A DNA stretch of 53,015 nt. Source: a virus. Taxonomy: Duplodnaviria; Caudoviricetes. Below, one piece after another: positions 7,682 through 42,030 of the stretch. The DNA is taken from positions 1-53,015 of IMG/VR virus record IMGVR_UViG_3300040806_000113; one strand, 5' to 3'. The notes under the pieces were generated by a model. That model saw only the letters and a program-made list of their open reading frames with translations. It made no database searches and was not told where the DNA came from. The first letter of the stretch is position 1. Every line of letters begins with the position of its first letter. The position numbers and the translations under genes are program-made.

Positions 7682-8128
7682 TTATGTGTTGTCGTTGTAT
7701 GTGACAAGCATGTTATCTTCGACGTTGTTACAGTCGCAAATAACAGCCCATACATTGACTTTTGAGTTACAAACAGCAGTTGCACTCAAGAGGTCGATGG
7801 TGTCTGCTGCAGCGTACAGATGTGGAACGTTAGTTGCCAAAGCAGCTTTTTGTCCCGCAGCAGTTTGTACAACAGCAGCAACGTAACGGTCTGGGTCAGC
7901 ACCGTCGCCAAGCGACAATGTACCTGTACCAGTACCTACGGTTAGGATTTCGTATCCTGCTGACAGTACAATTGAACCTGCAGGAACTGAAAGCACCTCG
8001 ATGGTGTCTGTTGCAGCAAGGGTGCTGAAGTCAGAATCTGTCAAGTCAACAACTTGACTCAGGACTTTGACATTTGGACCCTTTGCACTGTAGCCAGTAG
8101 TACCAGCGTTTGCAATTTGAAAAGGCAT
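7682..8128 (-). CDS. Capsid decoration/minor capsid protein
   Basis: Directly after the MCP; beta-rich 'VPAGSIVL...LSLGDGADPDRY'. Confidence 0.6.
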   Translation of the reverse strand: MPFQIANAGTTGYSAKGPNVKVLSQVVDLTDSDFSTLAATDTIEVLSVPAGSIVLSAGYEILTVGTGTGTLSLGDGADPDRYVAAVVQTAAGQKAALATNVPHLYAAADTIDLLSATAVCNSKVNVWAVICDCNNVEDNMLVTYNDNT

Positions 8129-8141
8129 ATCTCAGTCCCCC

Positions 8142-9122
8142 TTACGCTACTGTATCTACAACACCGCGAACGAGTGCTTCTGGGCGAAGGACTTTACGTC
8201 CAAACACATGAAGACCACGAACGATGTCGGAGAAGGTTTCAGTTGACCGAACTACTTCGGTTTTTGCAATGTGAGATGCAGTTGCAACGGCTGACATGTG
8301 ACCAGCCAAAACAACAGACTCACCATCTGCTGCAGCAACACCAGAGATGCTGATTGCATCTGTGCCGCCTGCTACCAGAGCAGTTGACTTGTAGCAGTTA
8401 AAGCCAGCAATCTGACCCTGCATTACAAGACCGTTCCGCAATGGTGAAGTGCCGTCGCCAGTTACCTGAACTTCTGCAAACTTTGCACCGGCTGAGAACA
8501 GCTTGGCGTAGAAAGCAGGAGAAGCAACGAACCAACGGTTCTCTTCTGGAACAGACTGCTCGTCAAGTTCTTTTGCCATTTCGAGCATCAGGTTGACAGC
8601 GTTGTCTGGAGCAGTGTGAACTGCAATTGGTGTACCAGCAGTACCCAGAGCAGTGTTGGTGTTCAACAGACCACCAGCAAGTGATGCGTCGTCAGCACCG
8701 GCAAGGCCAGCACCGTTAGCAATTGCTTGCAGAACGTTGAAGTCGTACTTGCGCTTCAAAGAGTATGCACCTGAAGAAGTAGCCAGTGCCTCAAAGTTAA
8801 CATGAGACTGACGCTCTTCGATGTCATCTATTTTGAACGCAAATGCGTTTGCTTGGTCAACAACCATAGTTGTCTGGTCGTCAGCCAAGTCTTGTGGGTT
8901 AACCACAGAGCCACGTGAGTAGGCACTTACTGTGATTGTAGGTTCTTTAATGATACGTACTGTATCGCCAAAGTTCTCAATTTCGCCAGCGTAATCAGTA
9001 TTCGTGATGTCTTCAGCAACCGAAGCGCGACGAAAAAACTTGAGGACTTTCTGGCTAAAGATTTCCGGTGTAAAGTTACCGGAAGGCAGGTTATTGTAAC
9101 CTGCAGCGCGATTAAAAGCCAT
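8142..9122 (-). CDS. Major capsid protein
   Basis: 'NFTPEIFSQKVL', 'TNTDYAGEI..FGDTVRI', 'DIVRGLHVFGRKVLRPEAL'; follows the scaffold. Confidence 0.9.
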   Translation of the reverse strand: MAFNRAAGYNNLPSGNFTPEIFSQKVLKFFRRASVAEDITNTDYAGEIENFGDTVRIIKEPTITVSAYSRGSVVNPQDLADDQTTMVVDQANAFAFKIDDIEERQSHVNFEALATSSGAYSLKRKYDFNVLQAIANGAGLAGADDASLAGGLLNTNTALGTAGTPIAVHTAPDNAVNLMLEMAKELDEQSVPEENRWFVASPAFYAKLFSAGAKFAEVQVTGDGTSPLRNGLVMQGQIAGFNCYKSTALVAGGTDAISISGVAAADGESVVLAGHMSAVATASHIAKTEVVRSTETFSDIVRGLHVFGRKVLRPEALVRGVVDTVA

Positions 9123-9151
9123 CTGCTTTTCCTTCCATTTTGAGGTTTATT

Positions 9152-10063
9152 CTAAGAGTTGAAGTCGATTCGCCCTTCAGACCGTGCCGCGTCCAATTCG
9201 CTTTCCAGCTTTTCGAACTCGTGCGCTTTCATCTTGGCGATTTGTGAAGCTTTCCAAATCCGTTTACCGTCTGTAGTTTCAGCCTTGATTTCCCGTGCTG
9301 GGGTTTTTGTTACGGCTTCTGCTGCAGATGCAGACTTGGTTTTCTTCTTGGTAGTCGTTAAGCCTGTGTCGGCTTTGTAGAGGTCTATGACCCGTGCCGC
9401 CCATTTCACATCGGTACTGTTCTTGTAGATACCTTCTGCAATAGAGCTTGGCTGCTCTTCTAGCCATGAAAGGAACTGCTGGTCCGTTTTGATTTCATTA
9501 AAGTCGGGGTGCAATCTGAGAAGCTGCTCGTAGGCGTTTTTCTTCTCTAGGGCTTGTTCCCGTTCTTTAATCGAACCTAGTTCTTCACGTAGTTTTGCAA
9601 CCTGTGTTTCGGTCTGCATGCTTGAAACTGTTTGAACAACTTCGAAGACATCTGGATAGCGTTCCTTGAACTCTTCCAGTTCCTCTTGTGTTCGCGGTGG
9701 AGTTACGCCTCGTGGCATTTCCGCCGCATGGTTCGTCATTGTCTGGCGAAGGTTTTCGATTTCACTTTTGAACTCGTTTACCTTGTCGTCATAATGACGT
9801 TTCAAGTCGTCATACCGCTTTTTGTAGTCGTGGTCGTCCGAAGCTTCCTTCTTTTGTTCCACGAAACTATCGCCCGCTTGCTTTTGCTGAGTAGCCGCTT
9901 CTTTTTCTGCAGGGTCAGCATCTTCTTGGGCTTCTACACCCGCCTCATCTTCTTCGTCTTGGTAAACTTCATCGCGGTACTTTCCACGATATAAGTTTTC
10001 GTTGTTGACGGTTCCAAAAGAGTCGTTTGCTTTGTTGGCACGGTGGCCTCTTGCTTTTGCCAT
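9152..10063 (-). CDS. Capsid scaffolding protein
   Basis: Acidic coiled coil, 'YKKRYDDLKRH', C-terminal 'ARSEGRI'; precedes the MCP. Confidence 0.8.
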   Translation of the reverse strand: MAKARGHRANKANDSFGTVNNENLYRGKYRDEVYQDEEDEAGVEAQEDADPAEKEAATQQKQAGDSFVEQKKEASDDHDYKKRYDDLKRHYDDKVNEFKSEIENLRQTMTNHAAEMPRGVTPPRTQEELEEFKERYPDVFEVVQTVSSMQTETQVAKLREELGSIKEREQALEKKNAYEQLLRLHPDFNEIKTDQQFLSWLEEQPSSIAEGIYKNSTDVKWAARVIDLYKADTGLTTTKKKTKSASAAEAVTKTPAREIKAETTDGKRIWKASQIAKMKAHEFEKLESELDAARSEGRIDFNS

Positions 10064-10079
10064 TTTATTTACCTCACTT

Positions 10080-10146
10080 GCGGGGCCACATGGCTGTGGG
10101 TAGCCGCTCCGGTTGTGCTGGGGCCACGGGTTCGTGGGTAGCCAGC
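10080..10146 (-). promoter_or_regulatory. Tandem structured RNA hairpins in the scaffold leader
   Basis: Two copies of GG-CUAC-CCAC(loop)GUGG-CC-CC with a compensatory pair, ending just before the GAGG RBS. Confidence 0.6.
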
Positions 10147-10153
10147 GGATTCT

Positions 10154-11911
10154 TTAGGCTAGGAAACCACCTCGCGCTGCTTGGACAGGCTGCTGTCCGT
10201 TCTGTGCAATGCGCTGTTCGGTTTTCCGAATGCCTCGTTTATTAATCTTTTCTAGGCGGTCTTCGCCTATAATCTTTACTAGGTGTGGGGCGATAGTCAC
10301 TTCACCACTCGACACCGCAATGTCAATCAGGTTTGAATGCCGCTCAAAGTCTTCCGTTGAAAGACCCCTGCGAACCGCTTCCTTTTGGGCATCCATAATC
10401 ATTTTACGGATGTCTTTCTCGCCTGCATACTCTACAGCGGCGGCATTTATGATATAAGTACCCTCTTTAGCCTTCATAGGGCGGTCGTCAGCGACTTTAG
10501 CCCCGTCCGTGACCTGTGATGGCGGAGCGTCTATAAAACCGCTCTGTGAGGCTTGTACCCCTGCTGGCGGGGTTCCGAAGGCGTAGGCGTTTCTGTTTTG
10601 CGGTCTGCCGTGGGTAATCATGCCTCCGCGAGCATCACCGCCCCCGTAGCCATCACCTACAGAACCATCTGCATTGCCTGCACCATCGCTGGTTCCGCCG
10701 CCGGGACCATCATTACTATTGTCGTTACTGTTGTCATTATTGTTATCACCCCAATCTGGTGCAGAAGGTGTAGCAGGTCCGGGACCAATTCCCGGTGGGG
10801 TTGATGGGCGACTTGGTTCTGATGGCGTATCAGGGGTAGAAGGTGTACTGGTGTCGTCATCATCATACGTGTTATAATAGTCGTAATTCATACCGGGCTT
10901 TGTCGAAGCAATGCCAGAGAAATCACCCCCCGGAGGAGTGGTGTCGCCATCACCGGCACTAACATCATAACCCTCATAGCTTTGCTGTTGCTCTTTAATG
11001 GCTTCTTCCAGAGTCATAGCCCCTGTGCGGGCTTTTTGTAAAGCTGCGTCTATTTGTGCGCGAGTGAGGCCAGAAGCGTTAGCTAGAGCGTTTGCATGTT
11101 TGGTACTGCCGTAGTACGATGTTTGTCCCGTGGCTGGGTTGTAAAAGTTTCCGCTAGATGTATAGAAGCCGCTTGGAAGTCCTGCGGTAACGCCATCTCC
11201 TTGGGTATCATAACCAATAGCCATCCAGCCAGCCTGTTTAAAAGTCTGGCCTGTTTCTTTACTCATGCTGTAGCTCCTAGGGACAAAACCCTTAGACAGA
11301 GCCTCTAGCCGAATAGCATCTTCTTGTGAAAGACCTCGCATATTTCCTGTATAGGTCAAGGAACCCGGCGCACGGGTAATTCCACCGGTTCCAAAATCTA
11401 TAGCAAAACCAGTTAGGGATGACCCAGACCCGATTGCTGCAGCGATTTTATTCATGTCGTCGTATTGAATTTCGTGAACCTTATCGGCTACAAAACCCAA
11501 AGGACCGGAAGGCCGCATACTTGCGTGACCAAAAGCATTGGTTACTGTGTCACCCGTTATAAAGGAACCCATTATTTTTCCGGGTATCCCGCCCAAAGCA
11601 CCTATTGCTGTTGCAAAAACAGACTTACCAGAAAAATTAAAATCTACGCGGTCTTTGGGCTTTTGATAGGAATAGCCAGATGTATAAGAAGATGGAACAC
11701 CGAACGTCATGCTGTACATGGGGTCGCCAGCTAGGTTCTTGTCGAAGACATCTGGGCGTGTGTCATCCCTACCATTATCAGAAGCTGTGCCTGTGTCCAC
11801 AGGGTCCACGTCAACCCCTGTCCACGTTCCCAAATCGTATAGGCCATAATACTGGCTACCATAATCAATATTACCAGACAGATACTGTTCTTTAGTTAGT
11901 GCTTCAGCCAT
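10154..11911 (-). CDS. Putative internal virion protein with low-complexity linker and duplicated gpH-C-terminus-like motif
   Basis: 585 aa Gly-rich; PT/ND low-complexity tract; 'EGTYIINAAAV...G' and 'SGEVTIAP..V..IG...L..IN'. Confidence 0.6.
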   Translation of the reverse strand: MAEALTKEQYLSGNIDYGSQYYGLYDLGTWTGVDVDPVDTGTASDNGRDDTRPDVFDKNLAGDPMYSMTFGVPSSYTSGYSYQKPKDRVDFNFSGKSVFATAIGALGGIPGKIMGSFITGDTVTNAFGHASMRPSGPLGFVADKVHEIQYDDMNKIAAAIGSGSSLTGFAIDFGTGGITRAPGSLTYTGNMRGLSQEDAIRLEALSKGFVPRSYSMSKETGQTFKQAGWMAIGYDTQGDGVTAGLPSGFYTSSGNFYNPATGQTSYYGSTKHANALANASGLTRAQIDAALQKARTGAMTLEEAIKEQQQSYEGYDVSAGDGDTTPPGGDFSGIASTKPGMNYDYYNTYDDDDTSTPSTPDTPSEPSRPSTPPGIGPGPATPSAPDWGDNNNDNSNDNSNDGPGGGTSDGAGNADGSVGDGYGGGDARGGMITHGRPQNRNAYAFGTPPAGVQASQSGFIDAPPSQVTDGAKVADDRPMKAKEGTYIINAAAVEYAGEKDIRKMIMDAQKEAVRRGLSTEDFERHSNLIDIAVSSGEVTIAPHLVKIIGEDRLEKINKRGIRKTEQRIAQNGQQPVQAARGGFLA

Positions 11912-12128
11912 TTTTTACAATTGCCTCGTGGTTAACCTTCAGTTGAAGGAGGGTTTCCAGTAAAGCCGCTTTCCCCTGCAGTTGGCGCAGTTCCGACTCC
12001 GATTGTGCCGTTACCAGACCCCTGTAAGTCTGTTCCTTCAGGACTTGGAGATACGCCTCCAGCCCCTGCCATATCTGCGGCTGGGCCAGCAGCGGCCCCA
12101 CCAGCTTCGCCTGTTCCTTGCTGTACAT
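11904..12128 (-). CDS. Small conserved protein overlapping the portal 3' end
   Basis: 'ELRQLQGKAALLETLLQLK' helix typical of the post-portal gene; its stop couples to the next start. Confidence 0.6.
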   Translation of the reverse strand: MYSKEQAKLVGPLLAQPQIWQGLEAYLQVLKEQTYRGLVTAQSESELRQLQGKAALLETLLQLKVNHEAIVKNG

Positions 12129-14058
12129 TTGCCATCATTCCTTTTAACATCTGTGCGTAGAGTTGTGCTTGGTTGGCATCGTTGACTAGGCTGTCTGGGT
12201 CGATATCTTGGGAGATAGCTAGTTCCCGCATCAGGTTAGGTATCTTGATGAACGGTGCCAGCATCGGGTTCGCAACGGTTTGCAACAGGGATGTCAAGCG
12301 TTGTGTGCGAACCTCTTTTTGCATCACGGCTGCAACACCGCGAGGCTTGATTTCCAAGTCGCCTTGGATATCTTCGGCATCTTCATTGAACTGCATGTTC
12401 CATTGGAAATAGGCTTCGCCTAAGGGCTTCAAGAGCATGTCGTCGATGTTCTTGATGACAGTCTTCATGGAGAGACCAGCAGAACCCATCAACATAGAGA
12501 GACCAGCGGCGGTTCGTCCGGTTCCAGATACGCCTGTTTGACCGTGCATGATTGATGGGATGCCCGTCTCTTCATCAGCAAGCTGACGACTAATCTGGTA
12601 CATCTGCAGGTTTTCCCCCGCCGTGTTCGGAAACTTCAAGCCGTTAATGGCTGTTCCGGTAACACCAGACTGGCGACGGAAGATTTTGCCGGGGAAAATA
12701 TCCATGTTCTGTCCCGGTACGAGACTAGCTTCATCCACGTCAAAAACAAGGTTGCCAGCAAGAGCCAAGTTGTCGATAGCCATGCGAACATGACCGTTCA
12801 TCAACTTCTGAGCATCTTCCATATTTTCCGCTACACCAACGCCCCAAAGCTGATAAGGATTAACTTCGTAAGGGAACACTTGGAACGGAATACGGGCTGG
12901 TGTGAACGGGTTTAGGACACAGCGAATAACCATGTTTCCGCAAACCCAGACATTAACCTGTAGTTCGTCGAACTCTGACATCTCGTCAGCTTCAGGAAGA
13001 CCTGCTTCGTAGGCCATCTTGGAATCCAAGACACCCCAATACTCTAGAACCTCGTAACGGTTACCCTGATAATAGGGTTCTGTTTCATCTTCGCGAATAG
13101 TGTCTTCGTAATACTTGTCCTCGTAATTAGGACCTTTGGCAAGACACTCTTCAACAGCCTCTGAAATAAAGTGAGGACGCTTTATAAGCGCACGAAGCTG
13201 TTGGCGATTCATGCGGTGACGTTGAATAACATATTCGCAGTCTTCGATGCTAGTAGCAGATGGGTCAGGGTGGAAATCCCACACAGACACCATTTCAATC
13301 CGTGGAACGGTCTTTTCTTCTGGGTTGTAAAAGCGTTCGCCGTTTTCGTCGCGTTCCCATTTGTGAACACGCTTGAAGAAATTAAAGGGACCTTTTACGA
13401 TACCCGTACCCAAAAGGGCCGATTCAAACACAGCGTTACGCATAACGTTGACTGCGTTCGTGTCGGTTAGCTGGTCGTGAATAACTTTTTCCATTCGAAG
13501 GGCTGCTTCTTGGGCAGGGCTAATCTGAGGTTCGCCCATCCGTGCCGGACCCGCTGCCAAGGGAATACCCTCGTACTTCTTCTGAAGGCCACCAAGAAAG
13601 TCGCCGCCCGGTTTTGCTTGCAATGCACCCGGAGCCAGTTCGCGACCATCACCTTTAAACCCATAGGGGTCTTGAGGTTGCATCTGGTCCAAAGGGGTTT
13701 CCATGTGAGCAAACTCCGCGATACCTTCTGGTACGGGAGTGGCTTCCACAACAAGAGGAAACTTCTTGTTTGCGAACAGGATGTCGATGATTTGACCAAA
13801 CGCTGCAAGAACCTTTGTCTTGGTAATACGAACAAAGACCTTCGACCGTTCTGAATCACGGTATTGGGTCGTTGAATCGTAGATACCCCTGAAGTTCTTG
13901 TAGGCTTGGAGCCAACGCTGTTCGTGGGCGTATCGCCCGTTCTCAGCATCTTCGAACCGTGACTTTACATACGCAGCCAGCCCCGGCATTTGCTCTTCTG
14001 GGGCGTGAACCGAAACAGTAGTGTCGTCGGCTGGTTGGAGAAAGTTATCTTCTGACAT
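11932..14058 (-). CDS. Portal protein
   Basis: 708 aa; 'ITKTKVLAA', 'LGTGIVKGP', 'WDFHPDP', 'WGVGVAE...Q', 'RTAAGLSML'. Confidence 0.9.
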   Translation of the reverse strand: MSEDNFLQPADDTTVSVHAPEEQMPGLAAYVKSRFEDAENGRYAHEQRWLQAYKNFRGIYDSTTQYRDSERSKVFVRITKTKVLAAFGQIIDILFANKKFPLVVEATPVPEGIAEFAHMETPLDQMQPQDPYGFKGDGRELAPGALQAKPGGDFLGGLQKKYEGIPLAAGPARMGEPQISPAQEAALRMEKVIHDQLTDTNAVNVMRNAVFESALLGTGIVKGPFNFFKRVHKWERDENGERFYNPEEKTVPRIEMVSVWDFHPDPSATSIEDCEYVIQRHRMNRQQLRALIKRPHFISEAVEECLAKGPNYEDKYYEDTIREDETEPYYQGNRYEVLEYWGVLDSKMAYEAGLPEADEMSEFDELQVNVWVCGNMVIRCVLNPFTPARIPFQVFPYEVNPYQLWGVGVAENMEDAQKLMNGHVRMAIDNLALAGNLVFDVDEASLVPGQNMDIFPGKIFRRQSGVTGTAINGLKFPNTAGENLQMYQISRQLADEETGIPSIMHGQTGVSGTGRTAAGLSMLMGSAGLSMKTVIKNIDDMLLKPLGEAYFQWNMQFNEDAEDIQGDLEIKPRGVAAVMQKEVRTQRLTSLLQTVANPMLAPFIKIPNLMRELAISQDIDPDSLVNDANQAQLYAQMLKGMMANVQQGTGEAGGAAAGPAADMAGAGGVSPSPEGTDLQGSGNGTIGVGTAPTAGESGFTGNPPSTEG

Positions 14059-14281: not shown

Positions 14282-16345
14282 TTATCTAGATAAAAAGCCT
14301 TCGTCTCTTACAGGGGCGGCTTCAGGAACCCTGCTTGGTTCTGGGATAAATCCCGTATCTTCTCTGGCAATACGTGCCATGTCTGTTCGTGACGTTCCCT
14401 GCTCTACTTCGGGGGCTGGGATGAAGTCTTGTCCGGCGTAGGGGCCAGCGGGTTCGAGGGGCTGGTCTTCTGGGCGGAGTTCGCCGGAAGCTAGTTCGCT
14501 AGGAGCGAGCATCATCGGAACTGCAGCGGCGGGGGCAGCAGCAAGACCCAAAGCCCGTGCGCCTACCTCCATACCAACTTCTGCAGCAAACGCAGCAGGT
14601 TCTTGAACCGCTTGGCGAACCGTTTCTATAGCTAATGCGCCACCTACTACCTTGAGAGTTTTCTTGCCAAAGTTATTAATCAAATTATTGAAGTCGATAC
14701 CATTACGGTCTAAGAAACCTTTTGTAGTGTCGGATAAGTCATCAAATGTCTTTGGTTCGGGGGATGTGCTGGTTGGTTTTGAAACAGGAACCTCTTCGCG
14801 AACCGGAAGGTCAAAATAACCTTCGTATCCTGCGGTTTGGGTCGTGATGCGAGTTTCTGGCATCGGGATTTTGGATTGGATATCAAAACCGGCTTCTGCT
14901 GCAGATTTGCCATAAAACGATGACACTTGTGAAGAGAACTCTCTATCTACATCAGATACCTCTCCCGGAAATGCTTTTTGATAACCCGCCAGTTCTCCTG
15001 TAGAACCTTTTGATGCAGCCTTTAAACTACGTCCTTGTAGATATGCTGTTCGTTCTTGAGGTATACCTAGAGATAAAGCAACAGATGAATGTACATTACG
15101 AAGAAGAGGAGAGCCTGTTTTGCCCGGCCCATTTTCTGGATGAAGAGAGTCGTAAAACTTTTTGGTGGATTGGTCGTACATTATCTGAGGGACTTTTACA
15201 GTTCTCAGTATTTTATTTATGTCATCTGTTTTAACTTGTGCGCCTGTTGACTTAGTAAAAAACCTGTCTCCGGGTTTTTTGCCCTGTAGCAATTCTTGCA
15301 AAATAGAATCAGCAACGGGATTTAAAGGTATATTAACCGCACGACCTTTAGCACCCTGCACATCAGCTTCGATGTAAACTGCTCCGGTGTCTGGAAAATA
15401 CTTATCTAAAGTAAGATTTAATACAGCATTAGGTCGCAGACCCGTATTTAAATTGAACAGAATAGCCAATGCTGCAGGTCTAGTTTCAGGGTTATCTAAA
15501 AATTGGGACACCCCTTCAAACAGTCTTGCTTGTTTTTTAGGGTCAGAACTAATTGCTATTTGGGCTTCTGATTTGGGTGGTTCTGCTCTACCAAAGATAC
15601 GTTTGTTTAAGGCTGTATCGGGCTTCTCATCAGGTAGCAACTTGTATTCTGGTGTATCAGGACCTGTTTTTTCTTTAAGAAGAATGCCTACCTGTCTGAG
15701 ATTCTGCATCGCAGCCTTGATAGGCGCATTTTCGTCAAGGCTGGTAAATGTTTTAGATAAAAGAGTGCGACCTTCGGCATCTTTTTCAAACAATCGTAAA
15801 GCTGAACCGGGTTCATCAGCTATTTCTTTAAAATACTGGATAGTAGGCCCAACAAAGTCTTTACGCTTAGATTTTTCAGCGTAAGCTTGGGCAACTTCAC
15901 GGAGAGTAGCGGTTTTGGGGTCGAGGTCAGCCACGGGTTTCTTTGATTCACCTTTAAATTTAAGAGGACTAAGAGGGTCTTTATCTGTTAAACGATTAAT
16001 ATAAATGTCTTCGTCGTCTACATTAATCCACTTAGCAAGTTTTGGGTCTTGCTTAGATGTAGCTTTATACATATAGCCTGCTGTAGCTTCTTGACTATAT
16101 AGCCGTAAGATTTCTTCTTTTGAAACGCCTCTACTAGAAGGTCTTAACTCATCGCCTTGATAAATATCATAGACATCGCCACGCTTCCTTATTTCTTGAA
16201 TATTACCCTTTGTTTGCTTGCCACCAGACCCTTTTTCATTTTTCATAAACCCAATAACAATAAAAGGTTTATCTAAGTCGGCTTCTGTTATAGGCTTACT
16301 GGCAAGACTATTTTCTTTTACAAACTTTATATCGTCGTTTGCCAT
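14282..16345 (-). CDS. Tyrosine-recombinase-domain protein (atypical active site) with long extensions
   Basis: 'LNTGLRP' (box I Arg), 'AKGRAVNIPL' (Lys), 'LLRNVHS' (box II Arg), 'YLQGR' (LGH position), 'LAGY' (Tyr). Confidence 0.7.
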   Translation of the reverse strand: MANDDIKFVKENSLASKPITEADLDKPFIVIGFMKNEKGSGGKQTKGNIQEIRKRGDVYDIYQGDELRPSSRGVSKEEILRLYSQEATAGYMYKATSKQDPKLAKWINVDDEDIYINRLTDKDPLSPLKFKGESKKPVADLDPKTATLREVAQAYAEKSKRKDFVGPTIQYFKEIADEPGSALRLFEKDAEGRTLLSKTFTSLDENAPIKAAMQNLRQVGILLKEKTGPDTPEYKLLPDEKPDTALNKRIFGRAEPPKSEAQIAISSDPKKQARLFEGVSQFLDNPETRPAALAILFNLNTGLRPNAVLNLTLDKYFPDTGAVYIEADVQGAKGRAVNIPLNPVADSILQELLQGKKPGDRFFTKSTGAQVKTDDINKILRTVKVPQIMYDQSTKKFYDSLHPENGPGKTGSPLLRNVHSSVALSLGIPQERTAYLQGRSLKAASKGSTGELAGYQKAFPGEVSDVDREFSSQVSSFYGKSAAEAGFDIQSKIPMPETRITTQTAGYEGYFDLPVREEVPVSKPTSTSPEPKTFDDLSDTTKGFLDRNGIDFNNLINNFGKKTLKVVGGALAIETVRQAVQEPAAFAAEVGMEVGARALGLAAAPAAAVPMMLAPSELASGELRPEDQPLEPAGPYAGQDFIPAPEVEQGTSRTDMARIAREDTGFIPEPSRVPEAAPVRDEGFLSR

Positions 16346-16348
16346 AGG

Positions 16349-18070
16349 TTAATATCCAAAGGTAGCATCATAAGGTTTAAAGGTCTGGTCCTTTATCCCC
16401 TGAAGCGTTTTATGTATAGATTGATAACCAGATGTTCGCGTCATAACCATATATCGCAACGCATCATAGGCATGGTCCTCTGCTCGCGTGTCTACATCTT
16501 CGCTGTTAGTTTTGGAGAGTGGAATGCCTGATAGCTGTGCAATGATATGCTTACAAGTGGAAAAAATCCGCATACGGGGTTCTTTGGAGTACGGGTCGTC
16601 AGCAAGCCGCCTGTGTAGTTCCATTTTTCCTTGAAGACGGTTGCGGTCTGAGGGAGTCCACCTAACCCCGGACCTCATCATAGTTTCTGCGATAGAAGGT
16701 CCGAATCCGGTTTTGTTCCAGCAGGAAGAGTCCAAGACCGTGTAGTGTGGTGTAGGGTCTAACTCTTCACATTCTAATATTTTATCAGCTAATTGTTCTG
16801 CTGTCAAGTGTTTTACGTATAATTCGCGATAAACCCAAATATTGTTATCCCAGTCAATAGCACCCCACAGAACACACGACGGCGACGAGTAGCCGTAGTC
16901 GGCGGCTCGTATGCGGGGCCAGTTCGTGGGAAGGTCAAAATGTTCGACCACATGTCGTGTCCTCGAAAACTCTGGGAAGGCCGCTCCCTCTGCCACATCC
17001 CAATCCCCTTCGAGAAGTCGTCTACGCTCGACTTCTGGGAGTGACCGAAGCATGGCCTCGTACTGACCATCTGCCATCAGGAAGGGGTTATCTGTCAGCC
17101 GTGCTGGGATAAACTTGCGGTAGAACAGAGGCTGACCTGCTTTTGGGTGATTTTCAGGCCACACGAAAGTACGGCCTGTCTCTAGGTCCTTGGCCCCGAA
17201 CGCCTTGTTGGGTTCATGGGCATCAATGTACATTTTCTTAACCCACCAGCCGCCAACACCACCGGGGTTCGCTGTGCAGCGCATGGTCAGGTTTGTCTGT
17301 AACTCAGGGTCTGTAGAACGTAGACGGGAACGAAGATAGTCCCAAACGTAACTCGTTGGGTATTGGGTTATTTCATCTATGCCAATCCAGTTGAACGCCT
17401 GTCCCTGAAAACGGGTAACGTCTTTGTCCCTGTCGAGATAGGTGAACCACATGGTTGCACCAGACGGGAACACCCACGTTGACTTTGACTCACGGAAGAT
17501 GGCTCCGGGAAAAGCCTTGGGGTATAGCTGCTTCGACTTGTCGATGAGTTCGGTTAGCTCGTCTAACGTGCGGCGGAGAAGAAGTCCACGATGATTAGCA
17601 TTGTGACAATAGCGTAGGGGGTCAGCAAGTAGAGCAAACGACTTGCCTCCGCCAGCGGCTCCCCCATAGAGTACATCTTGTTCAGGGGCAGAAAGGAAAT
17701 CTTCTTGAGGCCCCTCGTTAGGTTTGAATATAATAGGCGTGTCATCAATTAGGTCCGTTACGGCTTTGGGTAGTACGTCTAAATCACCAGCGTCTATAAC
17801 GCGGGTCTTGTTGCCGTTCATGGCGTTTTCAATGTTCTTGGCAGCGGTAGTCAGGTCCTTGACCTTTTTGCGCTTGCGAGCAACACGGGTTTCTTCTCGC
17901 TGTTGTTGCTTCTTTGCATTCCGCAACTTCATCTGTACGGAACGCCGCGCACGTTCCCTGTCACTTATATTGTGCGTGGTTTTTGATTCACCGGGTCTTT
18001 TCTTAGGTCTTCCGACCTTGCCTAAGTCTTCTGGGTTCGGGGGGACTAGAACTCTTTTGCGTGGGGCCAC
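16349..18070 (-). CDS. terL: Terminase large subunit
   Basis: Walker A 'YGGAAGGGKS', Walker B 'IGIDE', 'TANPGG', nuclease 'ADYG' and 'DHAYDALRY'; start uncertain (GTG 18070). Confidence 0.93.
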   Translation of the reverse strand: MAPRKRVLVPPNPEDLGKVGRPKKRPGESKTTHNISDRERARRSVQMKLRNAKKQQQREETRVARKRKKVKDLTTAAKNIENAMNGNKTRVIDAGDLDVLPKAVTDLIDDTPIIFKPNEGPQEDFLSAPEQDVLYGGAAGGGKSFALLADPLRYCHNANHRGLLLRRTLDELTELIDKSKQLYPKAFPGAIFRESKSTWVFPSGATMWFTYLDRDKDVTRFQGQAFNWIGIDEITQYPTSYVWDYLRSRLRSTDPELQTNLTMRCTANPGGVGGWWVKKMYIDAHEPNKAFGAKDLETGRTFVWPENHPKAGQPLFYRKFIPARLTDNPFLMADGQYEAMLRSLPEVERRRLLEGDWDVAEGAAFPEFSRTRHVVEHFDLPTNWPRIRAADYGYSSPSCVLWGAIDWDNNIWVYRELYVKHLTAEQLADKILECEELDPTPHYTVLDSSCWNKTGFGPSIAETMMRSGVRWTPSDRNRLQGKMELHRRLADDPYSKEPRMRIFSTCKHIIAQLSGIPLSKTNSEDVDTRAEDHAYDALRYMVMTRTSGYQSIHKTLQGIKDQTFKPYDATFGY

Positions 18071-18077
18071 TGTATAC

Positions 18078-18275
18078 CTATGGCTTTTCTGAACTGGCTG
18101 ATGCTGAACGCCCACGGCTTTCTTTTTTGTTTGCTTTGTCCCACATTTTTAATCCAGCAGCAATATCATCTTTATCATCTCCATATACACGAGAAAGATG
18201 ATTATAAGCTTGTTCTCTACTCATTTTAGTAAAATCAGTAAAGAAGTCTTTTGTGGCCTGATATGCAGATTCCAT
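18078..18275 (-). CDS. Hypothetical protein
   Basis: 65 aa, ends 'RGRSASASSEKP'. Confidence 0.5.
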   Translation of the reverse strand: MESAYQATKDFFTDFTKMSREQAYNHLSRVYGDDKDDIAAGLKMWDKANKKESRGRSASASSEKP

Positions 18276-37369: not shown

Positions 37370-37604
37370 TCTTCTTCTTGGCCTTTCCACCGTACATCAT
37401 ACCCATGCCCTTTTGCTGACGAGGTTGCATAGGATTGAACATGCTTGTCATGCTTGTCTCTGGGTTCATAGGGCTGCGAACCATTGAGCCATAGGCATAG
37501 CCCTTGGTCTTGCCGCCACGAGCCATGAAGCCCATCTTGTTGCGAACAGGCTTGGGTAGCTTGGCAAGTCCCTTATTGTCCTTCGGTATTGGTTTCATTT
37601 TCAT
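37359..37604 (-). CDS. Small basic protein with ARGG/YAYG motifs
   Basis: AGGAG RBS; 'GLAKLPKPVRNKMGFMARGG'. Confidence 0.65.
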   Translation of the reverse strand: MKMKPIPKDNKGLAKLPKPVRNKMGFMARGGKTKGYAYGSMVRSPMNPETSMTSMFNPMQPRQQKGMGMMYGGKAKKKNGY

Positions 37605-40600
37605 CTCCTATTAAGGCAGGTAATTCACGTTGACCCATGCGGGCTAGTTCTGTTGTTGCGAACTCTACAAGAAGTCCGTTTAAGTTGTCTACATCTGTTC
37701 GTGTGACCAGTTCCGGGTATTTGAACATGTTGTTGATGATGCGGGCTGCTTCCTTGTTACCGGCTGCAAGCTGTAATACCTCAATGCCGGATTGTGCAGC
37801 CATACGTACTGCGAACTCCGAAGTGACGTATAGCGGGCTAACCATGCCACGGCTGATGTTGTACAAGCGGCTCAAACCTTCATTGACAGAGTACCCTTTG
37901 ACAACACCTTCTACGCTACGTGCTTGTGAAGTAGCGGCACGGTCTAGGAAGTCTGCAATGTCTGTTAGATAATTTACGTGGTCTGCACCTAGTATCATCT
38001 CCAACATTTCACGATGTTCCTGAACATCTGCCAGCATAACTTCTGGTGTTGTGAATTGACGAACCTTCATTTTGCCGCCATCCAAAGCAGTCATACGCAT
38101 ACCTTGTGATGGGGCTAATCCGCCACGATTCATAAACGCCTTTGATACAAGACCACTGACGGCCCTGTCAAACATAGCTTCTGCTTCGTCTGCAGATTTA
38201 CCTGTCTTGACAACTGCTGGGATAAATGTGTCGCGAAGAGTGTCGAACCTTGTCTCACTACCATTCAAGACAAACTGTTCGTAAAACTGGTCAGGTGTAA
38301 TATCTCCCGTGAACCGCTGCAAGGCGTTCAGGGAATCTGCATCCATCTTGATATTGTTGTCTGCGTTGCGACGAACTTGGCTCTCAACGTTTGCAAAATC
38401 ATCTGCGAACTCTTTGTACCGTTTGCGAACCGCTTTGTTCTCCCGAATGATGCGGCTGATGTCACGGGCTTCTGAATACATATCACCTAAGTTCACCAAA
38501 GGTACGTCGATGTTCTCACCGTTTTGACGAATGGTTACAGTTGTCAGGTCGTTCATCAAACCTTCATCTGCAAGGTTCTTGAAGCTATATCCGCCTTCTA
38601 ACACACTTGCAGGACCGTCTGTCTTTTCGAACACGGCAATAGCCCGCTCTGTCCAGTCAGCGTAGATTTGTTCGTTGACTAGGTTTTGAATAGCCGCGAA
38701 CTTTGCCTTGCCTTCTTCTGTATCCAGATTGAAGACAGTTTGTCCATCAACACGGTCACCCCAATCTGTTGCAAGGTTATCAATCATGCTGCGAATATCA
38801 GCTTGGTCTGCAGGCTTGTTGTTCAAAGCACCTGTGATTTTGTTGGTCAGGGGACGTATATAGCCGAACGGGTTGCTCTGTTCATTTATGTACCGATACC
38901 GTGTCATACTATTGGCATCGACTTCCCTTTTCTCTGGGCCTTGACGGGCATCGTCCAGTTTGCGAACCGTACTTCCCCTGCGGAGTCTATCACCAATCTC
39001 ACTGCGATATGTTTCGCGGGCTTTTGTCAATAGAGAGAAGGTTTCACCGTCTTGAGTACGGATTAAGTTATCCATGTTAGCCGCGAACATCTGGACTTCA
39101 CGCCCTAGTTCTGGCTTAGATTCGCGCACACCGTAGGCATAATCCCTAAAAGCACGTCGCATCTCGTCGACCTCATAGGCATTTGCCTGTGCAAAGGGAC
39201 GGAAGCTGGGCGAGATTCGCTGCATTTCGAGGGCAATTTCTAGGTCTGACATGTTTTCGACCAGTTCTTGACCGAACCCGTTAGCTACCAGTGTTTGTCT
39301 AATCTCACCCATGGTTTCTGCAGGAATGGTTCGTTTAACCATATCATCAAACGTCCGATAAGCTATGCGACCCATACGGCCTGCAAAGAACTGACCGCTG
39401 GGGCTAAAGAAGCGAGCCATGTCTGTTTCACCTGCTTTGCTCATCAGGTCGATAACAGCATCGTGCATATCAATAGGTGGTGCAGTCTTAGCGGCTTCGC
39501 GAACCGCATTGTATGCTGCCTTGCCTTTTGCATACATGCTTTCTAGATGAGCATCTAGGGCATCTTCCATAGCGCGAGATAAACCTGCAACATATCCCCG
39601 TCCCTTACCGCGACGAGACTTCAAGCTGCTAACTCTATCTGTCACACCAGCATAGATATCTGTAACGACCTCGCCTATTGTTTTACGTTCGTCAACAATC
39701 TGGCCTAAACGCTTCTTCAAGGCAACGTCTGCTTCCACTAGGTTGTCAAGGAATCCTTCAGGAACATCAATTGTTGGGTCTGATAAAACCTGTTTGCGGA
39801 TATCCCCCAAGATTTCTAGGGTACTTTCCGAACGGCGGTTCAAATCATCCTTGAACTTGGCGGTTGCATTGCGGGTGTTATCCAACATTGCTTGGATTGA
39901 TTCGCGGTCTGCAATACCATCAGTTACCCGGACAAACTCTTGGAAGTTGTCCAAGGCTAGTTCTGTTGCGCGAACCTGTGCATCAGCCTGCTTCATTAAT
40001 TCAACCATATAGGTTGCATCCATGTTCTTCAGCTTCTTTGCGTCAATCTTATTTATAGACATCGCATGAAGGGCTGCAAGAGGTCCCAAGTTCGAAGACT
40101 GTGCGAACGACATAGTAAACAGTTCTTTAGCCTTATCCCGTGACTCTTCAGGGAATTGGCTTACGATACGGTCTTGTAACTCGACGTAATCATCGACAGC
40201 CTTCAAGATTTTTTCACGGGCTGCAGGGCTAGAGGTGTTGTTCACCAAGTAAATAGAATAGTTGATTGCCTTGCGCTGTTCAGCAGTTAGCTTAATACCA
40301 GTCGCTGCTTCGTAATCTTTTAGGGTGTTGTCTGTAATATTGAAACCCTTGTATTTTCCAAAGGTCATAAAATCGGCTACGGCAGCAACGTTCGACCCAA
40401 CACCGCCCCGTGGTGCTGACAGGAATTTAGAGGCTTGTCCCCCGATAAAACGGGTAGTTGGTGCGCCTATAGTCATCATGCCTATCAAGCCGATTGCCTC
40501 TGCAGCCATAGGGTCCATACCATATGCAGAAGATAAATACGCCCGTCCAGCAAGCTGTCCTGCAGACAAGATTAAAGCATCCTCCACATTTTGCTTTAGG

Positions 40601-42030
40601 TATGGATATGCCTTGAGGGTGTACATAGATTGCATTTTGCGGTTGATTAGGTTTTGCCGCTTGCCTTCTAGCACCTTATATTCGGCACTGTTCTTGGCAA
40701 CACCTTTGCGAACCAGTGCGTCCATCTCAAGGTCGGTGTTCCGCAAGTCATCGTTCAAACGACCCATAGCTTGTGTGGTTCGCTGTTGGCTAACCCCAAT
40801 GCTAAGAGCCTTCAAGTTGATTTTGTTGCGTCCCTCTGCCTGATTGATAATCTGTGCAGCCTCGAACGGGTCGTCCACATCGTCAAGGATGCGGCCCATA
40901 GCTGTACCTTTGTAGGAGTCCTTCAGTTTCTGGAACTTGCGTAAGGTTCGCTCGCCTCTTAGCACACCCGGTCCTGCCATACCAACTACATTCTCAAGGA
41001 ACATAACCCCAAACTGTTCGGAACGAGGCAGTTCGTTGAATGCAAGGTCTATGAGGTTCGCGGCTGCTTCTTCTGTGATGAACTCTTTTGGCTGTAGTTC
41101 GCCATCGACCTCTATCATTGTTTGAGCGTTGTATTGGTCTAATGTAATTTCACCCGCATCTAGCCTGCGTTTAAATTCATCGTGAATGCTATCATTAAAC
41201 GCCATCTTCATTGTTGGGTTTGGAATTACAGAATTGATTGCCTTGTAGGTGGAGTCTAAAGCTTGTTGAATATCGTTACCTCTTGCACCCCATTCAGATG
41301 AAAAATCAGTTCCTTTTTCTTTTGCATCGAAAAGGGCACCTGCTGCGTTATATCCCATGATACCCATCATAGGGATGCCGGTTGCCACGAACTGTCCAGC
41401 TTCTGCAAGCCGCGTCTCTAAAGAATTATAGAAGTCCCCAGTTTCAAACCGGTCAACAAAGATTTGACGAACCGCTGGGTCAGGCACATACTGAGATACA
41501 AGATTATCAAGATTGACACGGTTCTGGGCGTAGCGTTCCGCAGCCGGAATCATCAAGGGGTCTTGGACCACTTGGGCTGCAACCACCTCGCCTTCACGAA
41601 CAAATGGGATGATAACATCTTCACCGGGAACCTGTGGCTGAGATGACTTTGCCCACGCAGAACGCAGAGCAAGCATAGCCTTCGGATTGCTGTTCGCAAA
41701 CTCCAAGACACGATTGTTAATCGTAATGTCCCCAACTTTCTCTACTTTACCAGCAAGAACATCTTCCCACGCAGCACCAGTCTGCTGGGCCTGTACGTCT
41801 TGGGCAGCAGCAGGGGCTAGAGTTTTAGTTTCGGTAACAGGAACGTCCAGAACAGGGTCGTTTACAGTGGTTGTTCGCGAAACAGGCTCGTCGAGCATCA
41901 CCTTGTTTTCTACAGGTGCAATGGAAATACGAGGAGGCTTGGTATCTGTAGCGGGAGCGTCACCTGATGTGTCGAACCCTATGATATCCCGTTCAGCAAC
42001 AGGCTTAACATTTTCTTGTGGCTCTGCCAT
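37573..42030 (-). CDS. Large internal virion (ejection) protein
   Basis: 1485 aa, helical, last large gene of the structural arm as in podoviruses; function by position. Confidence 0.65.
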   Translation of the reverse strand: MAEPQENVKPVAERDIIGFDTSGDAPATDTKPPRISIAPVENKVMLDEPVSRTTTVNDPVLDVPVTETKTLAPAAAQDVQAQQTGAAWEDVLAGKVEKVGDITINNRVLEFANSNPKAMLALRSAWAKSSQPQVPGEDVIIPFVREGEVVAAQVVQDPLMIPAAERYAQNRVNLDNLVSQYVPDPAVRQIFVDRFETGDFYNSLETRLAEAGQFVATGIPMMGIMGYNAAGALFDAKEKGTDFSSEWGARGNDIQQALDSTYKAINSVIPNPTMKMAFNDSIHDEFKRRLDAGEITLDQYNAQTMIEVDGELQPKEFITEEAAANLIDLAFNELPRSEQFGVMFLENVVGMAGPGVLRGERTLRKFQKLKDSYKGTAMGRILDDVDDPFEAAQIINQAEGRNKINLKALSIGVSQQRTTQAMGRLNDDLRNTDLEMDALVRKGVAKNSAEYKVLEGKRQNLINRKMQSMYTLKAYPYLKQNVEDALILSAGQLAGRAYLSSAYGMDPMAAEAIGLIGMMTIGAPTTRFIGGQASKFLSAPRGGVGSNVAAVADFMTFGKYKGFNITDNTLKDYEAATGIKLTAEQRKAINYSIYLVNNTSSPAAREKILKAVDDYVELQDRIVSQFPEESRDKAKELFTMSFAQSSNLGPLAALHAMSINKIDAKKLKNMDATYMVELMKQADAQVRATELALDNFQEFVRVTDGIADRESIQAMLDNTRNATAKFKDDLNRRSESTLEILGDIRKQVLSDPTIDVPEGFLDNLVEADVALKKRLGQIVDERKTIGEVVTDIYAGVTDRVSSLKSRRGKGRGYVAGLSRAMEDALDAHLESMYAKGKAAYNAVREAAKTAPPIDMHDAVIDLMSKAGETDMARFFSPSGQFFAGRMGRIAYRTFDDMVKRTIPAETMGEIRQTLVANGFGQELVENMSDLEIALEMQRISPSFRPFAQANAYEVDEMRRAFRDYAYGVRESKPELGREVQMFAANMDNLIRTQDGETFSLLTKARETYRSEIGDRLRRGSTVRKLDDARQGPEKREVDANSMTRYRYINEQSNPFGYIRPLTNKITGALNNKPADQADIRSMIDNLATDWGDRVDGQTVFNLDTEEGKAKFAAIQNLVNEQIYADWTERAIAVFEKTDGPASVLEGGYSFKNLADEGLMNDLTTVTIRQNGENIDVPLVNLGDMYSEARDISRIIRENKAVRKRYKEFADDFANVESQVRRNADNNIKMDADSLNALQRFTGDITPDQFYEQFVLNGSETRFDTLRDTFIPAVVKTGKSADEAEAMFDRAVSGLVSKAFMNRGGLAPSQGMRMTALDGGKMKVRQFTTPEVMLADVQEHREMLEMILGADHVNYLTDIADFLDRAATSQARSVEGVVKGYSVNEGLSRLYNISRGMVSPLYVTSEFAVRMAAQSGIEVLQLAAGNKEAARIINNMFKYPELVTRTDVDNLNGLLVEFATTELARMGQRELPALIGDENETNTEGQ

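Follow-up and report, generated by a model that had tools for sequence, protein, structure and literature searches.

Autoregulation of scaffolding protein synthesis in phage P22 has reportedly been known since 1985, and papers of that year by Casjens & Adams and by Wyckoff & Casjens are said, by their titles, to deal with it. We know of no RNA operator that has been defined for this autoregulation. The passages of a bioRxiv preprint that treat the subject describe P22 scaffold synthesis as translationally autoregulated, with the N-terminus of the protein implicated, and the control as post-transcriptional and dependent on unassembled scaffold (bioRxiv 10.1101/2022.12.13.520362). A "portal protein/mRNA interaction" has also been proposed for P22, and is cited in a passage of another article as an idea without experimental evidence (PMC5529062).

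The locus considered here lies in a complete virus record (CheckV estimate 100%) of 53,015 bases, which was analysed at full length and is referred to below as the window. Its head module resembles the surroundings of P22 gene 8 in the order of portal, scaffold and P22-like coat genes, and in a scaffold of 303 aa in both phages. The portal-scaffold gap of P22 is, however, only 13 nt long and does not contain the motif described below, and the two scaffolds have no homology detectable in the searches run. Relatives of the window's major capsid protein carry the annotation of P22-like coat proteins. The closest isolates by head-module proteins are HMO-2011-type marine podophages (of Pelagibacter, Roseobacter and Puniceispirillum); against Pelagibacter phage HTVC033P the capsid protein shows 59% identity and the scaffold about 40%. 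The scaffold-like protein itself matches phrog_13678 (E 3.8e-57), a function-unknown family, and no Pfam family above cut-off. Its AF2 model is mostly helical (pLDDT 70.8) and returned no Foldseek match in the PDB at E<=0.001. We infer that it is probably the scaffold from gene order, protein length and this predicted helical fold, and use that name throughout. Its stop codon is separated by 29 nt from the major capsid protein gene downstream.

Two hairpins between a stop codon and the scaffold ribosome-binding site

Two hairpins occupy the gap between the upstream stop codon and the ribosome-binding site of the scaffold gene (Table 1), the TAA of the 585-aa gene being followed after 7 nt by hairpin 1. 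In each, a basal stem leads into an asymmetric internal loop (5' CUAC / 3' CC), above which come an upper stem and an apical loop. These parts are GCUGG/CCAGC, CCACG/CGUGG and AACC around the loop of hairpin 1, and GCGG/CCGC, CCAC(A)/(U)GUGG and GCCA around that of hairpin 2. The initial annotation had described tandem hairpins before the scaffold ribosome-binding site, and its coordinates and description prove exact on the minus strand; the identical internal loops, the differing apical loops, the lack of a U tract and the four nucleotides between hairpin 2 and GAGG can all be seen in the sequence. Past hairpin 1 stands ACAACC, and past hairpin 2 AAGUGAGG. The compensatory change from G-C to A-U, which had been offered as a sign of covariation, is real between the two copies but falls at a position that is often unpaired in relatives: the top pair of the upper stem is A.A in 41 of 97 distinct leaders, and the solid covariation is found at other pairs.

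Table 1. Features of the head module and of the scaffold leader, with positions in the window
Feature	Position	Strand	Remarks
Large terminase	16349-18115	minus	head module
687-aa protein with a weak integrase-like stretch		minus	head module
Portal	11932-14058	minus	head module
585-aa protein gene	10154..11911	minus	no family match; TAA stop 10156-10154
Hairpin element, whole	10080..10146	minus (mRNA)	67 nt; from sequence
Hairpin 1	10117..10146	minus	GCUGG-CUAC-CCACG-AACC-CGUGG-CC-CCAGC
Hairpin 1 internal loop	5' CUAC 10141-10138, 3' CC 10123-10122	minus	from sequence
Linker	10108..10116	minus	ACAACCGGA, between hairpins 1 and 2
Hairpin 2	10080..10107	minus	GCGG-CUAC-CCACA-GCCA-UGUGG-CC-CCGC
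Hairpin 2 internal loop	5' CUAC 10103-10100, 3' CC 10085-10084	minus	from sequence
GCCAU, apical loop of hairpin 2	10090..10094	minus	complementary to AUGGC (script)
Shine-Dalgarno GAGG	10072..10075	minus	4 nt (AAGU) past hairpin 2, 8 nt before AUG
Scaffold start codon AUG	10063..10061	minus	from sequence
AUGGC, start codon and first two bases of codon 2	10059..10063	minus	partner of the hairpin 2 loop
Scaffold-like gene, 303 aa	9152..10063	minus	between portal module and coat gene
Major capsid protein gene	8142..9122	minus	phrog_267 major head protein, E 1.2e-65

Taken alone, hairpin 1 has a predicted minimum free energy (MFE) of -13.6 kcal/mol (z -3.9) and hairpin 2 one of -11.2 kcal/mol (z -1.8). 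For the 67-nt element the predicted value is -26.7 kcal/mol (z -2.2), with both hairpins in the minimum-energy fold; the stability of the wider 121-nt region is ordinary (z -0.48). The Shine-Dalgarno sequence (SD) is predicted to be unpaired in nested folds, as is the AUG.

The architecture is unique within the window. A scripted scan of both strands returned these two hairpins only, shuffled sequences giving a mean of 0.47 occurrences with 3-bp stems and 0.04 with 4-bp stems, and the core pattern common to both hairpins occurs twice in the window and never in 100 shuffles. A covariance model of the single hairpin (R1), built from an alignment of 73 distinct hairpins and run on the window with filters off, scored hairpin 2 at 39.3 bits and hairpin 1 at 37.8 bits, the third-ranked site anywhere in the window reaching 10.0 bits. 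No Rfam 15 family matched the window at gathering thresholds, nor did any match region 9950-10300 at E<=10 with lax filters, and the element is not terminator-like: a terminator consensus scan found no such site at 10080-10146 on the minus strand. On both counts the initial annotation, which had named a known terminator or an Rfam family as identities that would undo its proposal, stands. A scan for sigma-70-like promoters (-35 and -10 hexamers, 16-18 nt spacing) returned none at the element, the nearest promoter-like site on the minus strand being 10737-10709. An A-rich, -10-like AAT word before hairpin 1 was set aside as the stop codon of the upstream gene.

Conservation, covariation and gene linkage among relatives

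Relatives were collected by routes of differing bias. Selection by scaffold protein, which is unbiased for the RNA, gave 57 IMG/VR loci and, via a scaffold alignment, 80 more, with nine from genome assemblies. A DNA pattern scan with the hairpin core gave at least 119 IMG/VR loci, and the matches listed (at least 119) are scaffold leaders, bar three chance matches in G+C-rich DNA. The 98 distinct leaders of alignment A1 were picked by a script that accepted only paired stems with the CTAC/CC architecture, and about half of them come from the pattern scan, which fixed the core of hairpin 2; both the pairing percentage and the constancy of hairpin 2 in A1 are therefore partly by construction. 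More generally, E-values from R1 are rough, and several of the counts below were taken from alignments that had been selected for the structure or fitted to it.

In the 57-locus set, R1 matched upstream of the gene at 55 loci, the other two being without upstream DNA, and all 125 matches of a 320-kb search that included 12 isolate loci lay on the sense strand of the gene. R1 matched at 72 of the 80 further loci, in part by construction, as contigs on which it was trained recur in that set, and 132 of 133 matches were sense. Four of the remaining loci are without upstream DNA, and four carry variant hairpins recognised by eye. The variants that R1 missed include GG-CUAC-UUAUAC...GUAUAA-CC-CC paired with GG-CUAC-UCAC-AAUAU-GUGA-CC-CC, and GGAG-CCAC-...-CA-CUCC. 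With these variants included, the motif precedes every protein-selected scaffold homologue that has upstream DNA. It reaches homologues down to about 25-30% protein identity in phages of alpha- and gammaproteobacteria, among them phages of Pelagibacter, Roseobacter, Puniceispirillum, Rhizobium, Aeromonas and Vibrio.

Two hairpins are present in 84 of 94 distinct leaders, one in nine (some of them cut by contig ends) and three in one. The isolate HTVC104P has two hairpins with A/U-rich stems, and a single hairpin abuts the SD in HTVC033P, CRP-2, CRP-13, CRP-235, CRP-738, Aeromonas phage 1233 and Vibrio phage CHOED. HMO-2011, the freshwater podophage ctYwJ313 and Rhizobium phage RHph_N3_19 carry a larger single element, which may be read as two CUAC/CC loops head-to-head on one helix, although the minimum-energy fold pairs GGCUAC/GUGGCC instead. 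The last hairpin lies 0-7 nt from the SD in most of the lineages listed. Isolate genomes contain one or two R1 copies each, at sites that had themselves trained the model. Five MAG/SAG assemblies (1-4 Mb, with scaffold homologues) gave matches at E<=0.1 in scaffold leaders only, 150 of 454 and 150 of 1222 first-look candidates having been scored in two of them, and the contigs may be mis-binned phage. A 17.9-bit match in HMO-2011, antisense within a MazG gene, was judged to be a chance occurrence.

As the initial annotation had anticipated, the structure is conserved and covaries when homologous leaders are aligned. RNAalifold predicted both hairpins from the 98 leaders, with double changes at 9 of 15 pairs. 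For the full two-hairpin structure, double changes occur at 11 of 19 pairs (195 cells), 0-9 double-change cells remain when the partner is slid by 1-3 columns, and the covariation score was reached by none of 500 shuffles. The single-hairpin alignment of 73 sequences has double changes at 8 of 10 pairs, and its covariation score of 0.584 falls to 0.010-0.072 on sliding the partner. The basal stem of hairpin 1 alternates between GCUGG/CCAGC, GUCAG/CUGAC, GUCGG/CCGAC and CGCAG/CUGCG, and upper stems between CCAC/GUGG, CCGC/GCGG, CCGU/ACGG, CUGU/ACAG and CUAC/GUAG. In the Pelagibacter phage HTVC104P the replacement is complete, hairpin 1 being CAAG-CUAC-CUUCUA-GAAA-UAGAAG-CC-CUUG and hairpin 2 UUAG-CUAC-CUUC-AGUUAA-GAAG-CC-CUAA, followed by AGGAGG. 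On the sense strand, G.U or U.G outnumbers A.C or C.A by 14 to 4 in the core pairs, and G.U outnumbers A.C by 9 to 0 in the upper stem; this excess indicates pairing in the sense-strand RNA, as the antisense would show the reverse.

While stem sequences vary freely, the loop core is retained across relatives as G|YYAC|C ... G|CM|C. In alignment A2 nothing varies at G5, A8, C9 or C10, at the G that closes the upper stem, or at the C that follows the 3' loop. The invariant core runs from the G-C pair that closes the basal stem, through A and C at positions 3-4 of the loop, to the C-G pair with which the upper stem opens. Of 81 distinct hairpins, 62 have CUAC/CC as the internal loop, seven CUAC/CA, six CCAC/CA, five CCAC/CC and one UCAC/CC, and the further variants AUAC/AC and ACAC/CC are found in phages of Vibrio, Roseobacter and Aeromonas. 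The apical loop of hairpin 1 ranges from 3 to 8 nt and has no conserved letters. The linker is kept as ACAACCGNN in the window's clade; in A1 its A46, C47 and C48 are invariant and adjoining positions are at least 90% conserved.

The apical loop of hairpin 2 is kept in the window's clade (as AGCCAU or AGCCAA), which that of hairpin 1 is not, and its complementarity to the start of the scaffold gene (Table 1) has counterparts elsewhere: UCCAU with AUGGA in the HTVC033P type, UCUUCCA with UGGAAGA in lineage L286, GUCA with UGAC in L259 and GACA with UGUC in L283. With all GCCA/AUGGC cases collapsed to one lineage before the permutation test, complementarity between loop and start codon, covarying with the second codon, is present in 5 of 37 collapsed loop/context lineages and absent in 32; permuting the contexts gave a mean of less than one match, and 4 of 20,000 permutations reached five (p about 0.0002). 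In lineages L255 and L265 the matching loop is that of the first hairpin. Judged from sequence, this complementarity appears to be an added feature of some clades, the window's included, that lies outside the core motif. It could allow a pseudoknot between hairpin loop and start codon, in which GCCAU:AUGGC would be stem 2 and the connecting strand would contain the SD. Pairing of the linker or of the internal loop with the SD was also considered by eye and discarded as inconsistent across clades.

A long open reading frame on the same strand ends within 90 nt of the first hairpin in 80 of the 94 distinct leaders, at a median distance of 7 nt. So close an upstream frame means either that the element is intercistronic in a polycistronic message or that a promoter lies inside the upstream gene. 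Parts of the region are covered by 13 metatranscriptomic RNA runs, all as assembled contigs. Summed contig depth in four runs from four studies was high over 8083-10175 and dropped upstream of 10176 in three of the four; in the fourth, X6, it is low everywhere and nil over 9854-10175. Such depth cannot rank genes or show ends, conserved genes also recruit contigs of relatives, and we base no conclusion on it. A contig from run X7 ends at 10191 and continues into adapter sequence, a single case to which we attach no weight.

Proposed translational control of the scaffold gene and competing readings

Within the intercistronic leader of the scaffold mRNA, these hairpins would act as a conserved, structured RNA that regulates in cis. 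Our favoured explanation, to which we give roughly even chances, is that they are a protein-bound translational operator of the scaffold gene, possibly autogenous. Each hairpin would offer the same asymmetric loop (G|CUAC|C opposite G|CC|C) on freely changing stems, and a fixed loop on free stems is the signature of a site that is read by a protein. Control would be exerted at translation initiation, as is suggested by the last hairpin abutting the SD and, in the window's lineage, by an apical loop able to pair with AUGGC. A bound protein, one per loop or a dimer over both, may block or trap the 30S subunit, and the binder might do so by stabilising the pseudoknot between hairpin loop and start codon. 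The structure, its conservation and covariation, and its strand specificity, position and uniqueness are observed; protein binding, the identity of the binder and repression as the outcome are matters that we infer. The conserved asymmetric loop, the two copies and the constant position relative to the SD favour an operator over a plain stability hairpin. The initial annotation had already suggested an operator with two protein-binding sites, and its central idea fits the fixed loop, the paired copies and the SD-relative position; two sites are not obligatory, however, as many lineages have one hairpin.

The favoured binder would be a head-module protein, most simply the unassembled scaffold. 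The motif travels with the scaffold family over hosts and was not found elsewhere in the examined genomes, and head-module proteins are the only ones obviously common to the phages that carry it, both of which point to a protein of this kind. Naming the scaffold in particular leans on analogy with P22 and is tentative; autogenous control in the style of P22 would match scaffold supply to capsid assembly. That analogy, also drawn in the initial annotation, holds in so far as the P22 scaffold has been described as translationally autoregulated, and stops at the RNA, since P22 is without the motif: the best R1 match in its genome with filters off reached 10.8 bits (E about 1), and none lay at the gene 8 leader. 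A further suggestion, that the Arg-rich N-terminus (MAKARGHRANK) provides the binding surface, meets the difficulty that this sequence is conserved in the window's clade only. Other clades keep the motif while their scaffold N-termini are acidic or unrelated, and if the scaffold binds, the Arg-rich tail is probably not the universal determinant. The scaffold regions conserved in all clades are a basic helix, YKKRYDDLKRHYD, at about residues 78-112, and the C-terminal two-thirds. No recognisable RNA-binding domain was found in the scaffold by Pfam or PDB fold search, and the Pfam, AF2 and Foldseek outcomes neither support nor contradict an RNA-binding fold.

The same leader may be read in terms of message decay. 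It is somewhat unlikely, in our estimation, that the hairpins are an intercistronic processing or stability element, near which a late polycistronic mRNA would be cut, or to which it would be decayed, leaving them to cap either the scaffold-coat segment at its 5' end or the upstream segment at its 3' end. Scaffold and coat messages would then outlast that of the portal region, setting stoichiometry, and a ribonuclease or protective factor would recognise the conserved loop. The predicted stability of the hairpins suits this role, as does their filling of the stop-to-SD gap, with no room for a promoter between and none predicted. A simple exonuclease block, however, needs no invariant asymmetric loop. 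RNase III requires about two helical turns, and the helices here total 9-10 bp per hairpin and are broken by the loop, which is short of a T7-type RNase III site; some phages have a basal stem of no more than 2-3 bp. Abutment on the SD and complementarity of loop and AUG also point to initiation rather than decay. Initiation might be served by a cis-only structure with no trans factor, the hairpins insulating the SD from the sequence before it and from ribosomes that terminate 7 nt upstream or, alternatively, a loop/AUG pseudoknot fixing the translation efficiency of the scaffold relative to its neighbours. An SD and AUG predicted to be unpaired, a constant SD-relative position, covarying loop/AUG complementarity and the upstream stop 7 nt before hairpin 1 are consistent with such a device. 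We nevertheless consider it improbable, as insulation would not keep CUAC/CC over hosts and any stem composition and most lineages are without pseudoknot potential.

Signals acting before translation fare less well. The put RNAs of phage HK022 are two-hairpin antiterminators that modify RNA polymerase, and an attenuator or put-like antiterminator would here govern read-through into the scaffold and coat genes. Two adjacent nascent-RNA hairpins with internal loops, conserved in both sequence and structure, have the appearance of such a signal. The missing U tract, the lack of a terminator-like site at or just past the element, the existence of single-hairpin lineages and the contact with the SD, which this account leaves unexplained, nonetheless make it very improbable. 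At the level of DNA, the covarying palindromes are palindromic too, and could be extruded as a cruciform or single-strand hairpin for a DNA-binding or HUH-type protein, or represent a REP-like repeat; GTAG, which complements CTAC, is the recognition word of REP/RAYT systems and the tetranucleotide beside REP palindromes. This account we hold to be scarcely probable at all: 125/125 and 132/133 matches lie on the sense strand, G.U exceeds A.C on that strand, GTAG would sit inside the hairpin and not beside it, and each genome has two copies, no others having been found in the phage or, at E<=0.1, in the five MAG/SAG assemblies as scored. REP palindromes occur as many dispersed copies, and the copies in the window are two and adjacent.

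Returning to the protein-bound operator, a more specific form of it is possible, if less likely to be right than wrong. A free scaffold or portal dimer would sit on the C-loop-like sites (see below) and lock the loop of hairpin 2 onto the AUG, and scaffold translation would stay off until the protein is used in procapsids, making the leader an RNA operator that senses assembly. In a bolder form, the leader RNA may also be a nucleation platform for portal-scaffold complexes. Were the sensing operator real, scaffold autoregulation would have its first defined RNA operator, in one of the most abundant phage groups of the ocean. With a length of 28-67 nt and obvious determinants, the element offers a mutable handle on the old question of how tailed phages match scaffold synthesis to assembly.

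Comparison with described RNA elements

As a short element of clear signature that precedes every scaffold homologue examined and is absent from Rfam, the hairpins are a candidate new family of cis-regulatory RNA. A new RNA family is indeed what they appear to be, and full-text searches of the libraries used found no paper describing such a motif. HMO-2011-type phages infect SAR11, SAR116 and Roseobacter and are described, in passages of a genome paper devoted to them, as a dominant and widely distributed marine viral group (PMC9038755). A term search of the main text of that paper returned no hairpin, stem-loop, promoter or intergenic (PMC9038755).

At the level of structure, the closest likeness may be to the C-loop, which is described in passages of two papers as an asymmetric loop within hairpins, often with C as the first base of its longer strand, that contains two multi-paired cytosines and an exposed adenine and serves as a site of RNA-protein binding (PMC9516175, PMC2952876). 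Under the sequence definition given in the first of these (an asymmetric internal loop of a hairpin, C often being the first base of the longer strand; PMC9516175), both copies in the window qualify. The likeness, as judged from base sequence, would extend to an A between pyrimidines within a longer strand of CUAC, or CCAC as a variant. Classical C-loops are roughly 3x1, as we read the segment lengths of a published account (PMC2952876). The loop in the window differs in being 4x2, or 3x1 if its outer C and C oppose.

Hairpins of a stabilising or processing kind are found in the Rhodobacter pufQ-pufB region, and T7 has intergenic RNase III sites with internal loops. The present element resembles both in lying between cistrons whose products are needed in unequal amounts. 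It differs from them in its much shorter helices and in that the conserved part is the loop, not the length or strength of the helix. ANTAR targets consist of two hairpins with conserved hexaloops, a pattern not seen here, where the loops of hairpin 1 are of 3-8 nt and without conserved letters.

Self-bound translational operators offer close functional parallels, and include the E. coli S15/rpsO pseudoknot, the two-hairpin ThrRS/thrS operator and the hairpin of the MS2 coat protein. In thrS, two hairpins serve a dimer; in rpsO, a loop pairs near the start codon and the bound protein traps the ribosome. The window's element has no sequence or Rfam similarity to these operators, and its own loop/AUG pairing is suggested by complementarity, in a minority of lineages. 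What it would share with them is a small hairpin, or hairpins, at the SD and AUG and a protein that recognises an irregularity in the helix. The kind of element, a leader hairpin operator, is familiar; the family, its loop signature, its tie to the scaffold gene and the covarying pairing of loop and start codon appear to be new.

A larger element in three scaffold leaders

In the scaffold leaders of HMO-2011, ctYwJ313 and Rhizobium phage RHph_N3_19, one bigger element replaces the hairpin pair. We read its layout as GG-CUAC-helix-CC-[inner hairpin]-CUAC-helix-CC-CC, an arrangement which would present the CUAC/CC loop twice, in two-fold fashion around a common helix. If read correctly, such an arrangement would fit a dimeric binder. 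Minimum free energy folds are at odds with this layout, however, and pair GGCUAC with GUGGCC instead.

Hairpin-like sequences and the linker

In one distant clade (L055, L056 and L057, handles of relatives' scaffold loci), the scaffold ORF itself contains, approximately 125 nt past the start codon, a third hairpin built in the same way (CAGG-CUAC-...-CC-CUUG/CCUG). This hairpin scores 14-17 bits with R1, our covariance model of the single hairpin, and could be either a chance occurrence or an additional site. R1 also has a weak match in HMO-2011 (17.9 bits, E 0.008), antisense within a MazG-like gene, which is probably due to chance. The linker between the two hairpins of the window, ACAACCGNN, is conserved, and (A/U)ACC words are also found in the linkers of unrelated clades, such as CCUACCGA and CUACCAAA.

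A possible fragment end nearby and other reading frames

A single metatranscriptome contig (run X7) stops at window position 10191 and continues into sequencing-adapter letters, a hint that a fragment may end there, 45 nt ahead of hairpin 1. No promoter-like site was found upstream. Elsewhere in the window, the 687-aa protein matched phrog_216 in PHROG (E 1.2e-7); its match to PF00589 in Pfam (E 1.3e-4) fell short of the cut-off. Neither the 1485-aa nor the 585-aa ORF matched PHROG or Pfam.

Coordinates of the features discussed (L-numbers denote relatives' scaffold loci)
Feature	Location	Strand	Remark
Larger element before scaffold SD	L178:1244-1293		HMO-2011
Larger element before scaffold SD	L187:1286-1325		ctYwJ313
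Larger element before scaffold SD	L185:1344-1392		Rhizobium phage RHph_N3_19
Third hairpin	L055:993-1025; matching place in L056, L057		one distant clade
R1 match	NC_021864.1 16517-16553	-	HMO-2011
Inter-hairpin linker	window 10108-10116	-	
687-aa protein	window 14282-16345	-	terminase-portal interval; weak integrase-like stretch
1485-aa ORF	window 37573-42030	-	
585-aa ORF	window 10154-11911	-	
Scaffold-coat gap	L178:2176-2415; L180:2323-2650; L181:2164-2493; L182:2176-2442; L188:2170-2390		HMO-2011 and CRP phages

The scaffold-coat gap in HMO-2011 and CRP phages

An R1 search of the scaffold-coat gaps of HMO-2011 and the CRP phages returned no hairpin. The words found there include ACUACC and GGCCC, reminiscent of the hairpin core, and in several of these phages the gap opens with a promoter-like GTGTTGAC...TATAAC. 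The scaffold-to-coat distance is 220-330 nt in HMO-2011 and the CRP phages, compared with only 29 nt in the window.
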